From Escherichia phage T7: a stretch of 39,093 nucleotides of DNA. Positions 9,863 through 39,093 of the stretch are shown here, piece by piece; the first letter of the stretch is position 1; each line of letters starts with the position of its first letter. The notes beneath the pieces are model-generated. The model did not search any database. It had not been told where the DNA came from and saw only the letters and a program-made list of their open reading frames with translations. A program made the position numbers and the translations under genes. Location: sequence record AY264775.1; one strand, 5' to 3'.

Positions 9863-10317
9863 TGGCTCGTGTACAGTTTAAACAACGTGAATCTACTGAC
9901 GCAATCTTTGTTCACTGCTCGGCTACCAAGCCAAGTCAGAATGTTGGTGTCCGTGAGATTCGCCAGTGGCACAAAGAGCAGGGTTGGCTCGATGTGGGAT
10001 ACCACTTTATCATCAAGCGAGACGGTACTGTGGAGGCAGGACGAGATGAGATGGTTGTAGGCTCTCACGCTAAGGGTTACAATCACAACTCTATCGGCGT
10101 CTGCCTTGTTGGTGGTATCGACGATAAAGGTAAGTTCGACGCTAACTTTACGCCAGCCCAAATGCAATCCCTTCGCTCACTGCTTGTCACATTGCTGGCT
10201 AAGTACGAAGGCGCTGTGCTTCGCGCCCATCATGAGGTGGCGCCGAAGGCTTGCCCTTCGTTCGACCTTAAGCGTTGGTGGGAGAAGAACGAACTGGTCA
10301 CTTCTGATCGTGGATAA
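9862..10317 (+). CDS. 3.5: Lysozyme, N-acetylmuramoyl-L-alanine amidase and RNAP inhibitor (gp3.5)
   Basis: 151-aa ORF MARVQFKQRESTDAIFVHCSATKPSQNVGV... Confidence 0.97.
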   Translation: MARVQFKQRESTDAIFVHCSATKPSQNVGVREIRQWHKEQGWLDVGYHFIIKRDGTVEAGRDEMVVGSHAKGYNHNSIGVCLVGGIDDKGKFDANFTPAQMQSLRSLLVTLLAKYEGAVLRAHHEVAPKACPSFDLKRWWEKNELVTSDRG

Positions 10318-13053: not shown

Positions 13054-13076
13054 CTATTCGACTCACTATAGGAGAT
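13054..13076 (+). promoter_or_regulatory. T7 promoter phi4.7
   Basis: ctattcgactcactataggagat. Confidence 0.85.
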
Positions 13077-13082
13077 ATTACC

Positions 13083-13490
13083 ATGCGTGACCCTAAAGTT
13101 ATCCAAGCAGAAATCGCTAAACTGGAAGTTGAACTGGAGGACGTTAAGTACCATGAAGCTAAGACTCGCTCCGCTGTTCACATCTTGAAAAACTTAGGCT
13201 GGACTTGGACAAGACAGACTGGCTGAAAGAAACCAGAAGTTACCAAGTTGAGTCATAAGGTGTTCGATAAGGACACTATGACCCACATCAAGGCTGGTGA
13301 TTGGGTTAAGGTTGACATGGGAATTGTTGGTGGATACGACTACGTCCGCTCAGTTAGTGACAAATATGCACAAATGTCATACATCACAGATGTTACTCCA
13401 CGCGGTGCAATCGTTACCGATAAGACCAACATGATTCACACAGATTTCTTGACAGTTGTTTCATATGAAGAGATTGTTAAGTCACGATAA
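13083..13490 (+). pseudogene. 4.7: gp4.7 reading frame interrupted by an in-frame TGA at 13224-13226 (codon 48 of 135)
   Basis: ATG at 13083 after phi4.7 and an SD; same frame continues to the stop at 13488-13490; the track splits it into ORFs 12954..13226 and 13248..13490 in one frame. Confidence 0.8.
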
Positions 13491-13508
13491 TCAATAGGAG
13501 AAATCAAT

Positions 13509-15623
13509 ATGATCGTTTCTGACATCGAAGCTAACGCCCTCTTAGAGAGCGTCACTAAGTTCCACTGCGGGGTTATCTACGACTACTCCACCGCTGAGTA
13601 CGTAAGCTACCGTCCGAGTGACTTCGGTGCGTATCTGGATGCGCTGGAAGCCGAGGTTGCACGAGGCGGTCTTATTGTGTTCCACAACGGTCACAAGTAT
13701 GACGTTCCTGCATTGACCAAACTGGCAAAGTTGCAATTGAACCGAGAGTTCCACCTTCCTCGTGAGAACTGTATTGACACCCTTGTGTTGTCACGTTTGA
13801 TTCATTCCAACCTCAAGGACACCGATATGAGTCTTCTGCGTTCCGGCAAATTGCCCGGAAAACGCTTTGGGTCTCACACTTTGGAGGCGTGGGGTTATCG
13901 CTTAGGCGAGATGAAGGGTGAATACAAAGACGACTTTAAGCGTATGCTTGAAGAGCAGGGTGAAGAATACGTTGACGGAATGGAGTGGTGGAACTTCAAC
14001 GAAGAGATGATGGACTATAACGTTCAGGACGTTGTGGTAACTAAAGCTCTTCTTGAGAAGCTACTCTCTGACAAACATTACTTCCCTCCTGAGATTGACT
14101 TTACGGACATAGGATACACTACGTTCTGGTCAGAATCCCTTGAGGCCGTTGACATTGAACATCGTGCTGCATGGCTGCTCGCTAAACAAGAGCGCAACGG
14201 GTTCCCGTTTGACACAAAAGCAATCGAAGAGTTGTACGTAGAGTTAGCTTCTCGCCGCTCTGAGTTGCTCCGTAAATTGACCGAAACGTTCGGCTCGTGG
14301 TATCAGCCTAAAGGTGGCACTGAGATGTTCTGCCATCCGCGAACAGATAAGCCACTACCTAAATACCCTCGCATTAAGACACCTAAAGTTGGTGGTATCT
14401 TTAAGAAGCCTAAGAACAAGGCACAGCGAGAAGGCCGTGAGCCTTGCGAACTTGATACCCGCGAGTACGTTGCTGGTGCTCCTTATACCCCAGTTGAACA
14501 TGTTGTGTTTAACCCTTCGTCTCGTGACCACATTCAGAAGAAACTCCAAGAGGCTGGGTGGGTCCCGACCAAGTACACCGATAAGGGTGCTCCTGTGGTG
14601 GACGATGAGGTACTCGAAGGAGTACGTGTAGATGACCCTGAGAAGCAAGCCGCTATCGACCTCATTAAAGAGTACTTGATGATTCAGAAGCGAATCGGAC
14701 AGTCTGCTGAGGGAGACAAAGCATGGCTTCGTTATGTTGCTGAGGATGGTAAGATTCATGGTTCTGTTAACCCTAATGGAGCAGTTACGGGTCGTGCGAC
14801 CCATGCGTTCCCAAACCTTGCGCAAATTCCGAGTGTACGTTCTCCTTATGGAGAGCAGTGTCGCGCTGCTTTTGGCGCTGAGCACCATTTGGATGGGATA
14901 ACTGGTAAGCCTTGGGTTCAGGCTGGCATCGACGCATCCGGTCTTGAGCTACGCTGCTTGGCTCACTTCATGGCTCGCTTTGATAACGGCGAGTACGCTC
15001 ACGAGATTCTTAACGGCGACATCCACACTAAGAACCAGATAGCTGCTGAACTACCTACCCGAGATAACGCTAAGACATTCATCTATGGGTTCCTCTATGG
15101 TGCTGGTGATGAGAAGATTGGACAGATTGTTGGTGCTGGTAAAGAGCGCGGTAAGGAACTCAAGAAGAAATTCCTTAAGAACACCCCCGCGATTGCAGCA
15201 CTCCGCGAGTCTATCCAACAGACACTTGTCGAGTCCTTTCAATGGGTAGCTGGTGAGCAACAAGTCAAGTGGAAACGCCGCTGGATTAAAGGTCTGGATG
15301 GTCGTAAGATACACGTTCGTAGTCCTCACGCTGCCTTGAATACCCTACTGCAATCTGCTGGTGCTCTCATCTGCAAACTGTGGATTATCAAGACCGAAGA
15401 GATGCTCGTAGAGAAAGGCTTGAAGCATGGCTGGGATGGGGACTTTGCGTACATGGCATGGGTACATGATGAAATCCAAGTAGGCTGCCGTACCGAAGAG
15501 ATTGCTCAGGTGGTCATTGAGACCGCACAAGAAGCGATGCGCTGGGTTGGAGATCACTGGAACTTCCGGTGTCTTCTGGATACCGAAGGTAAGATGGGTC
15601 TTAATTGGGCGATTTGCCACTGA
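13509..15623 (+). CDS. 5: DNA polymerase (gp5)
   Basis: 704-aa ORF, T7 DNA polymerase including the thioredoxin-binding region. Confidence 0.98.
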
Positions 15624-16306: not shown

Positions 16307-16515
16307 TGTCTGACTATCTGAAAGTGCTGCAAGCAATCAAAAGTTGCCCTAAGACTTTCCAGTCCAACTATGTACGGAACAATGCGAGCCTCGTAGCGGA
16401 GGCCGCTTCCCGTGGTCACATCTCGTGCCTGACTACTAATGGACGTAACGGTGGCGCTTGAGAAATCACTGCTTCCGATATTCGCTTTCTGAAACGAATG
16501 AGAGGATGTGTCTAA
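16306..16515 (+). pseudogene. 5.7: gp5.7 (inhibitor of sigma-S RNA polymerase) interrupted by an in-frame TGA at 16459-16461 (codon 52 of 69)
   Basis: MSDYLKVLQAIKSCPKTFQSNYVRNNASLVAEAASRGHISCLTTNGRNGGA*EITASDIRFLKRMRGCV*. Confidence 0.8.
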
Positions 16516-16673
16516 TGTCTCGTGACCTTGTGACTATTCTACGCGATGTGTGAAACGATATACAGGGCTACATCGACTCTCTGGAACGTGAGAACGATAG
16601 CCTTAAGAATCAACTAATGGAAGCTGACGAATACGTAGCGGAACTAGAGGAGAAACTTAATGGCACTTCTTGA
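16515..16673 (+). pseudogene. 5.9: gp5.9 (RecBCD inhibitor) interrupted by an in-frame TGA at 16551-16553 (codon 13 of 52)
   Basis: MSRDLVTILRDV*NDIQGYIDSLERENDSLKNQLMEADEYVAELEEKLNGTS*. Confidence 0.85.
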
Positions 16674-33779: not shown

Positions 33780-35441
33780 ATGGCTAACGTAATTAAAACC
33801 GTTTTGACTTACCAGTTAGATGGCTCCAATCGTGATTTTAATATCCCGTTTGAGTATCTAGCCCGTAAGTTCGTAGTGGTAACTCTTATTGGTGTAGACC
33901 GAAAGGTCCTTACGATTAATACAGACTATCGCTTTGTTACACGTACTACTATCTCTCTGACAAAGGCTTGGGGTCCAGCCGATGGTTACACGACCATCGA
34001 GTTACGTCGAGTAACCTCCACTACCGATCGATTGGTTGACTTTACGGATGGTTCAATCCTCCGCGCGTATGACCTTAACGTCGCTCAGATTCAAACGATG
34101 CACGTAGCGGAAGAGGCCCGTGACCTCACTACGGATACTATCGGTGTCAATAACGATGGTCACTTGGATGCTCGTGGTCGTCGAATTGTGAACCTAGCGA
34201 ACGCCGTGGATGACCGCGATGTTGTTCCGTTTGGTCAACTAAAGACCATGAACCAGAACTCATGGCAAGCACGTAATGAAGCCTTACAGTTCCGTAATGA
34301 GGCTGAAACTTTCAGAAACCAAGCGGAGGGCTTTAAGAACGAGTCCAGTACCAACGCTACGAACACAAAGCAGTGGCGCGATGAGACCAAGGGTTTCCGA
34401 GACGAAGCCAAGTGGTTCAAGAATACGGCTGGTCAATACGCTACATCTGCTGGGAACTCTGCTTCCGCTGCGCATCAATTTGAGGTAAACGCTGAGAACT
34501 CTGCCACAGCATCCGCTAACTCTGCTCATTTGGCAGAACAGCAAGCAGACCGTGCGGAACGTGAGGCAGACAAGCTGGAAAATTACAATGAATTGGCTGG
34601 TGCAATTGATAAGGTAGATGGAACCAATGTGTACTGGAAAGGAAATATTCACGCTAACGGGCGCCTTTACATGACCACAAACGGTTTTGACTGTGGCCAG
34701 TATCAACAGTTCTTTGGTGGTGTCACTAATCGTTACTCTGTCATGGAGTGGGGAGATGAGAACGGATGGCTGATGTATGTTCAACGTAGAGAGTGGACAA
34801 CAGCGATAGGCGGTAACATCCAGTTAGTAGTAAACGGACAGATCATCACTCAAGGTGGAGCCATGACCGGTCAGCTAAAATTGCAGAATGGGCATGTTCT
34901 TCAATTAGAGTCCGCATCCGACAAGGCGCACTATATTCTATCTAAAGATGGTAACAGGAATAACTGGTACATTGGTAGAGGGTCAGATAACAACAATGAC
35001 TGTACCTTCCACTCCTATGTACATGGTACGACCTTAACACTCAAGCAGAACTATGCAGTAGTTAACAAACACTTCCACGTAGGTCAGGCCGTTGTGGCCA
35101 CTGATGGTAATATTCAAGGTACTAAGTGGGGAGGTAAATGGCTGGATGCTTACCTACGTGACAGCTTCGTTGCGAAGTCCAAGACGTGGACTCAGGTGTG
35201 GTCTGGTAGAGCTGGCGGTGGGGTAAGTGTGACTGTTTCACAGGATCTCCGCTTCCGCAATATCTGGATTAAGTGTGCCAACAACTCTTGGAACTTCTGC
35301 CGTACTGGCCCCGATGGAACCTACTTCATAGCCTCTGATGGTGGATGGTTACGATTCCAAATACACTCCAACGGTCTCGGATTCAAGAATATTGCAGACA
35401 GTCGTTCAGTACCTAATGCAATCATGGTGGAGAACGAGTAA
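33780..35441 (+). CDS. 17: Tail fiber protein gp17
   Basis: 553-aa ORF MANVIKTVLTYQLDGSNRDF... Confidence 0.97.
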   Translation: MANVIKTVLTYQLDGSNRDFNIPFEYLARKFVVVTLIGVDRKVLTINTDYRFVTRTTISLTKAWGPADGYTTIELRRVTSTTDRLVDFTDGSILRAYDLNVAQIQTMHVAEEARDLTTDTIGVNNDGHLDARGRRIVNLANAVDDRDVVPFGQLKTMNQNSWQARNEALQFRNEAETFRNQAEGFKNESSTNATNTKQWRDETKGFRDEAKWFKNTAGQYATSAGNSASAAHQFEVNAENSATASANSAHLAEQQADRAEREADKLENYNELAGAIDKVDGTNVYWKGNIHANGRLYMTTNGFDCGQYQQFFGGVTNRYSVMEWGDENGWLMYVQRREWTTAIGGNIQLVVNGQIITQGGAMTGQLKLQNGHVLQLESASDKAHYILSKDGNRNNWYIGRGSDNNNDCTFHSYVHGTTLTLKQNYAVVNKHFHVGQAVVATDGNIQGTKWGGKWLDAYLRDSFVAKSKTWTQVWSGRAGGGVSVTVSQDLRFRNIWIKCANNSWNFCRTGPDGTYFIASDGGWLRFQIHSNGLGFKNIADSRSVPNAIMVENE

Positions 35442-35499
35442 TTGGTAAATCACAAGGAAAGACGTGTAGTCCACGGATGGACTCTCAAGGAGGTACAAG

Positions 35500-35703
35500 G
35501 TGCTATCATTAGACTTTAACAACGAATTGATTAAGGCTGCTCCAGTTGTTGGGATGGGTGTAGCAGATGTTAGTGCTCGACTGTTCTTTGGGTTAAGCCT
35601 TAACGAATGGTTCTACGCTGCTGCTATCGCCTACACAGTGGTTCAGATTGGTGCCAAGGTAGTCGATAAGATGATTGACTGGAAGAAAGCTAATAAGGAG
35701 TGA
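35500..35703 (+). CDS. 17.5: Holin gp17.5
   Basis: 67-aa ORF with a hydrophobic segment; in-frame start is a GTG after aaggaggt SD. Confidence 0.85.
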   Translation: MLSLDFNNELIKAAPVVGMGVADVSARLFFGLSLNEWFYAAAIAYTVVQIGAKVVDKMIDWKKANKE

Positions 35704-38933: not shown

Positions 38934-39093
38934 TCTCACAGTGTACGGACTTAAAGTTCCCCCATAGGGGGTACCTAAAGCCCAGCCAATCATCTAAAGT
39001 CAACCTTCGGTTGACCTTGAGGGTTCCCTAAGGGTTGGGGATGACCCTTGGGTTTGTCTTTGGGTGTTACTTTGAGTGTCTCTCTGTGTCCCA
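38934..39093. repeat. Right terminal direct repeat (full copy)
   Basis: Begins tctcacagtgtacgga...; 38958..39093 is the counterpart of window 1..136. Confidence 0.9.

Follow-up and report, generated by a model that had tools for sequence, protein, structure and literature searches.

In the phage T7 line deposited as AY264775, the whole record of which (39,093 nucleotides, hereafter designated the window) was analyzed, gene 4.7 was found to be interrupted by an in-frame opal codon, TGA, at 13224–13226, in place of the TGG that encodes Trp48 in wild-type T7. We consider it about 95% probable that this TGA is an induced G:C>A:T transition (Trp48 to opal), which was fixed by drift in a bottlenecked, mutagenized T7 line and which has made gene 4.7 a pseudogene. 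The stop is already on record, being a mutation in a published T7 line; AY264775 belongs to the series of Bull et al. (2003, J Mol Evol 57:241), in which, according to the passage of PMC4811365 that cites it, random mutations were fixed by serial extreme bottlenecks. Presumably, a chemical mutagen causing G:C>A:T transitions turned TGG into TGA at 13226, and drift through plaque bottlenecks would then have fixed the TGA in the AY264775 lineage. Translation directed by the intact phi4.7 promoter and Shine-Dalgarno sequence would end after 47 residues, and the product would be an N-terminal helix devoid of the conserved C-terminal beta-barrel, so that the function of gp4.7 is most likely lost. 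The phage probably tolerates the stop because its growth on laboratory E. coli does not require gp4.7.

The interrupted gene 4.7 and its surroundings

All coordinates are given as positions in AY264775 (T7, + strand), unless another genome is named. Gene 4.7, here a pseudogene, occupies 13083–13490 (+) and carries 11 substitutions relative to the laboratory wild type T7+. As described in the first-pass annotation, its ATG at 13083 lies behind promoter phi4.7 and a Shine-Dalgarno sequence; the T7 promoter-like sequence CTATTCGACTCACTATAGGAGAT and GGAG precede the ATG, and both the promoter and GGAG are identical to those of the wild type. The class II T7 promoter phi4.7 spans 13054–13076 (+), with its +1 at 13071, the position equivalent to 13915, at which NC_001604 places the phi4.7 promoter, and its sequence is identical across the T7 lines aligned. 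The Shine-Dalgarno GGAG, read from the sequence at 13071–13074 (+), is likewise the same in T7+. The frame starting at 13083 ends, also in agreement with the earlier description, with TAA at 13488–13490 (135 sense positions plus the stop), and its translation is open apart from the TGA at 13224–13226 (+), which is codon 48 (...WTWTRQTG*KKPEVTKL...).

The change from TGG (Trp) to TGA that had been proposed from the sequence alone was borne out by the alignment, in which codon 48 is TGG in both NC_001604 and T7+ (AY264774) and TGA in AY264775. Reference T7 has no TGA at this codon, and the gene annotated in NC_001604 does not start downstream of it but at the same ATG, its interval being equal to 13083–13490. 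Only the position of the altered base required correction, because it had been given as 13225, whereas the G>A change is at 13226, the third codon position, in a 5'-GG context. When the region was searched by megablast, phage T7 records matched with 98.3% identity and AY264776 (line K115, see below) with 99.9% identity. Gene 4.7 itself is 97.3% identical to the wild type at the DNA level, with 11 differences in 408 bp; the changes relative to T7+ are A16V, K36K, W48*, L56L, V81I, G86D, G93D, V98M, G103D, A112T, and G121D, eight of which are missense. The missense changes spread over the gene fit a lack of purifying selection.

The residual ORF, consisting by translation of 47 codons and the opal stop (13083–13226, +), would encode only the N-terminal helix of the predicted structure described below and a portion of its beta-hairpin. 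The remainder of the gene, codons 49–135 (13227–13487, +), comprises the linker along with the SH3/KOW-like beta-barrel predicted at the C-terminus and would be left untranslated; seven missense substitutions and a synonymous one are located in it. Further downstream (13496–13511, +), the ribosome-binding site AGGAG of gene 5 (DNA polymerase) and its ATG at 13509 are unchanged relative to the wild type. Thus, there is no obvious sequence-level effect of the gene 4.7 stop on the essential gene 5, the expression of which is presumably unaffected.

Several structural changes were also observed elsewhere in the window. An 821-bp deletion at 1727/1728 (T7+ 1752–2572) has taken away the last part of gene 0.6 together with the first half of the protein kinase gene, 0.7. 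The 7-bp sequence CCGCAAG is present at both ends of the T7+ stretch deleted, which suggests that these short direct repeats may have given rise to the deletion through slippage or recombination. In the sister line P, a similarly sized deletion with other end points seems to be present, gene 0.6A being intact and gene 1 starting at 2330 there. Relative to T7+, an in-frame 3-bp insertion is found in gene 1.5 (~7007) and a 3-bp deletion, likewise in frame, in gene 1.7 (~7355), and K115 has both of them (93 bp for gene 1.5 and 588 bp for gene 1.7). The AY264775 sequence begins at T7+ base 25, so that the terminal repeat lacks its first 24 bases, and a few bases differ from T7+ at both extreme ends (1–60 and 39034–39093). 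Probably, the genome ends were not fully determined in this deposit.

Mutation spectrum and selective constraint

The substitutions in AY264775 were counted with the laboratory wild type T7+ (AY264774) as the reference. They amount to 416 in total (199 G>A, 191 C>T, and 26 others), 390 of which (94%) are G:C>A:T; the G to A signature with which the codon 48 change had been connected is thus found genome-wide. A purine is present on the 5' side of the mutated G in 312 of the 390 G:C>A:T changes (80%), and the per-site mutation rate varies with the 5' neighbor of G, being 3.8% after G, 2.7% after A, 1.0% after C, and 0.67% after T. Examined for a nitrosoguanidine-type signature, the genome shows both the excess of G:C>A:T changes (390/416) and the preference for a 5'-purine. 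Nitrosoguanidine has a classical preference for G preceded by a purine, and it was probably the mutagen of the AY264775 lineage.

The same context bias bears on the kind of stop codon formed. In a TGG codon, the 5' neighbor of the third-position G is G and that of the second-position G is T (5'-GG and 5'-TG contexts, respectively), and under the observed context rates TGG>TGA is ~5.6 times likelier than TGG>TAG; the C>T routes to stop codons (from CAG, CAA, and CGA) are also in unfavorable contexts. The stop in gene 4.7 is thus opal, not amber, because the mutagen prefers G after a purine. The premature stops in AY264775 number three, and all of them are TGG>TGA changes, at W48 of gene 4.7, at W52 of gene 5.7 (W52*, codon 52 at 16459–16461), and at W13 of gene 5.9 (W13*, codon 13 at 16551–16553). 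It was also observed that same-strand mutations (G>A or C>T) form runs that are slightly longer than expected (175 runs versus 196 ± 10 expected; P ~0.02), the longest run in AY264775 being 10, and that 9 of the 11 changes in gene 4.7 are G>A on the + strand. Such same-strand runs may reflect clustered alkylation damage.

At 973 sites in AY264775, a stop codon would result from a G:C>A:T change. The number of nonsense mutations expected is ~20 with a uniform rate and 12.3 with context-aware rates, as compared with the three observed (P ~3e-6 and 0.002, respectively), and all three surviving nonsense mutations are in small accessory genes. In the essential and structural genes, the ratio of nonsynonymous to synonymous changes (N:S) is 107:115, that is, 48% nonsynonymous versus a neutral expectation of ~66% (P = 5e-8). 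The ratio of 9:2 in gene 4.7 fits neutrality (P = 0.52) and differs from that in the essential genes (Fisher P = 0.034). Gene 4.7 has four TGG codons, and at the GG rate of 3.8% one or more of them would be changed to TGA with a probability of ~0.14; given the mutational load, a stop in this gene is therefore unremarkable. The mutational load together with a lack of constraint would suffice to account for the gene 4.7 stop. The idea that gene 4.7 is a mutation hot spot was rejected, since its 11 changes in 408 bp give P = 0.0018 when the gene is taken singly, but a 408-bp stretch with 11 or more changes arises somewhere in the genome in 89% of random placements.

Related lines and alternative explanations

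The descendant line K115 (AY264776) has 388 substitutions in common with AY264775, among them the TGA and the remaining ten changes in gene 4.7, so that the two copies of gene 4.7 are identical. K115 differs from AY264775 by 24 private differences (some of which are N calls) and has the wild-type base at five AY264775-specific sites. K115 also has additional deletions, one of which (~654 bp, from ~15988 on) has eliminated genes 5.3–5.9, including the other two genes with premature stops. In the K115 record, gene 4.7 is labelled only 'misc_feature: similar to gene 4.7'. The protein accessions of AY264775 (AAP33969.1 for gene 1, AAP33989 for gene 4.5, and AAP33990.1 for gene 5) leave none for gene 4.7, from which we infer that its depositors also gave gene 4.7 no CDS. 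The gene 1 and gene 5 numbers were obtained by exact matching of the two proteins, and they lie in the interval from AAP33965, with which AY264774 ends, to AAP34018, with which AY264776 begins.

In the sister line P (AY264777), gene 4.7 (13086–13493 of that record) is in frame and carries E18K, A25T, G39D, and E129K, among which G39D is a change at an invariant residue. In P82 (AY264778), which descends from P, gene 4.7 is also inactivated and has no CDS annotated, but the lesion differs from that in AY264775, being a 1-bp deletion in a CCC run at codon 3–4 (~13097). This frameshift is absent from the parent P and hence arose in later passages. The two independent inactivations, W48* and the P82 frameshift, indicate that gene 4.7 is dispensable under these conditions. 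Moreover, deletions over genes 4.5–4.7 arose in several heat-adapted T7 populations (PMC8923235), and in a study of T7 genome reduction gp4.3–4.7 were removable and a gp4.7-disrupted mutant 'gradually increased' during serial transfer (PMC9825161). Together with the retention of the stop in K115, these findings support the earlier statement that gene 4.7 is dispensable in the laboratory. Apart from the lesions in gene 4.7, the K and P lines have 24 differences from T7+ in common, several of which are transversions (e.g., at 2440, 4696, 10217–10218, and 35210–35691), and these point to a common ancestor stock that had already diverged before the split.

The repeated inactivation could also be taken to mean that the loss of gene 4.7 was positively selected, i.e., that a gp4.7 knock-out is advantageous in laboratory culture and the stop adaptive. 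In favor of this are the independent lesions in two lines (W48* in K and the –1 frameshift in P82), the recurrence of the 4.5–4.7 deletions in heat-adapted populations (PMC8923235), the gradual increase of the gp4.7-disrupted mutant (PMC9825161), and the fact that the stop was not reverted in K115, though five other sites there are at the wild-type base. However, drift fixes random mutations in an extreme-bottleneck design such as that outlined in the citing passage of PMC4811365, the chance of a TGG>TGA change in gene 4.7 is already ~0.14, and many further neutral-looking changes are found in the same gene; in addition, the deletions may have been favored for genome length or packaging and not for the loss of gp4.7 itself. 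Selection for the stop thus appears rather unlikely, and there is a similarly small chance that W48*, the P82 frameshift, and the 4.5–4.7 deletions are parallel adaptive knock-outs, with the loss of gp4.7 being mildly beneficial and the gene useful only in nature.

It is very improbable that the TGA is read through, or that translation restarts downstream of it, such that functional gp4.7 or its C-terminal domain is still made. Of the stop codons, UGA is the one most readily read through in E. coli K-12, where Trp-tRNA-Trp decodes it at a rate of ~2% at 37 °C (PMC10570021); insertion of Trp at the UGA would restore Trp48, and the base following the TGA is A. On the other hand, the stop is not conserved, codon 48 being TGG in T7, T7+, P, P82, and 17 of 18 natural relatives, and since the relatives examined have TGG, nothing here has evolved for recoding. 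Purifying selection on the extension was not found either, with seven missense and one synonymous substitution past the stop and a neutral-like N:S for the gene as a whole, and four of these seven missense changes are Gly>Asp, which argues against a functional downstream product, whether made by read-through or by restart. As for restart sites, the C>T change at 13248 makes an in-frame TTG seven codons past the stop, but initiation there is unlikely, with no Shine-Dalgarno sequence upstream. The near-invariant Met66 has an SD-like AAGGA upstream; this motif was rejected as the mark of an internal start, being a by-product of Lys-Asp codons that is absent in diverged relatives (e.g., L021–L024). 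A trace of full-length gp4.7 may possibly still be made by read-through; such a protein would carry all eight missense changes, including the four Gly>Asp replacements.

A sequencing or assembly error in the AY264775 record, with gene 4.7 in fact intact, is extremely improbable. AY264775 represents a single isolate sequenced in ~2003, and N calls occur elsewhere in the K115 sequence; nevertheless, the separately deposited K115 has the same base at codon 48 together with the ten other gene 4.7 changes, the depositors apparently left out the gene 4.7 CDS, and the change matches the mutational signature and the context bias exactly.

Conservation of gp4.7 and comparison with known systems

Trp48 is one of the 17–19 residues that are invariant in the alignments of 29 and 49 homologues of gp4.7, down to ~39% identity. 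At the DNA level, TGG was found at the equivalent of codon 48 in 17 of the 18 natural viral contigs containing a relative, the search motif not being found in the other one. An exact search of the viral contig collection with the TGA-bearing 38-mer gave no match, and a 61-base query matched only K115 at 100% in the phage collection. Wild-type gp4.7 (NP_041981) matches phrog_4023 (E = 3.8e-62), a family (PHROG 4023) that is annotated as of unknown function, and its 104 homologues in T7-like phages all have the precomputed Pfam assignment PF26857. In AY264775, as in wild-type T7, gene 4.7 lies between gene 4.5 and the DNA polymerase gene 5, behind phi4.7. The AY264775 gene shows the full-length similarity characteristic of the gp4.7 family (PHROG 4023/PF26857) and lacks the uninterrupted frame and Trp48, its codon 48 being TGA. 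Since the TGA replaces a residue that is invariant in 49 homologues, the AY264775 locus is a pseudogene of the gp4.7 family. Separately, C-terminally truncated forms of gp4.7 with divergent tails were seen in other public T7-like genomes (P0047, 92 aa; P0075, 74 aa; P0045, 80 aa), which suggests that frameshifts or truncations of gene 4.7 have occurred in other isolates too.

The structure of gp4.7 was considered on the basis of an AlphaFold2 model (mean pLDDT, 83.8) of P0008, a homologue with 90% identity. The model comprises a helix (residues 4–37), a hairpin (41–49), a low-confidence linker, a beta-barrel (74–126), and a short C-terminal helix, and it assigns Trp40 and Trp48 to the small hairpin region. 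Judged from this model, only the helix and an incomplete hairpin would remain when translation ends at codon 48, and the predicted C-terminal beta-barrel would be lost. In a Foldseek search against the PDB, the model resembled only generic KOW/SH3/Tudor-like barrels, weakly and with none at E ≤ 0.001, and a PDB sequence search with gp4.7 gave no match; the matches in BFVD were only to Gp4.7 or uncharacterised proteins of T7-like phages. Residues 31–61 (13173–13265), containing the conserved ILKNLGW...GW motif, gave a sub-threshold match to the Pfam profile HicA_toxin. Assignment of gp4.7 as a HicA-like toxin was rejected, because the match scored 13.6 bits against a cut-off of 27 (E = 0.074) and covered only profile positions 4–25 of 58. 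For T3 gp4.7, a possible role in DNA metabolism has been mentioned, on the grounds of homology with a DNA polymerase subunit of E. coli (PMC2696425); this link was not reproduced by the sequence and structure searches conducted here.

The gene 4.7 stop is one of ~400 mutations induced in a genome from a published evolution experiment, and it matters little beyond bookkeeping. It also provides clean genetic evidence that gp4.7, which is conserved in T7-like phages, is dispensable on laboratory E. coli, and it illustrates how the context bias of a mutagen (5'-GG) steers nonsense mutations to TGG>TGA. For annotation, we recommend that the AY264775 locus be labelled as a gene 4.7 pseudogene.

Compared with gene 4.7 of wild-type T7, the AY264775 copy has the same position, phi4.7 promoter, Shine-Dalgarno sequence, start, and terminal stop; the wild-type gene is uninterrupted, whereas the AY264775 copy contains the TGA at codon 48 and eight missense changes. 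The substitutions in AY264775 as a whole resemble the spectrum of alkylating agents of the MNNG type in E. coli and phages, being likewise mostly G:C>A:T with the mutated G following a purine.
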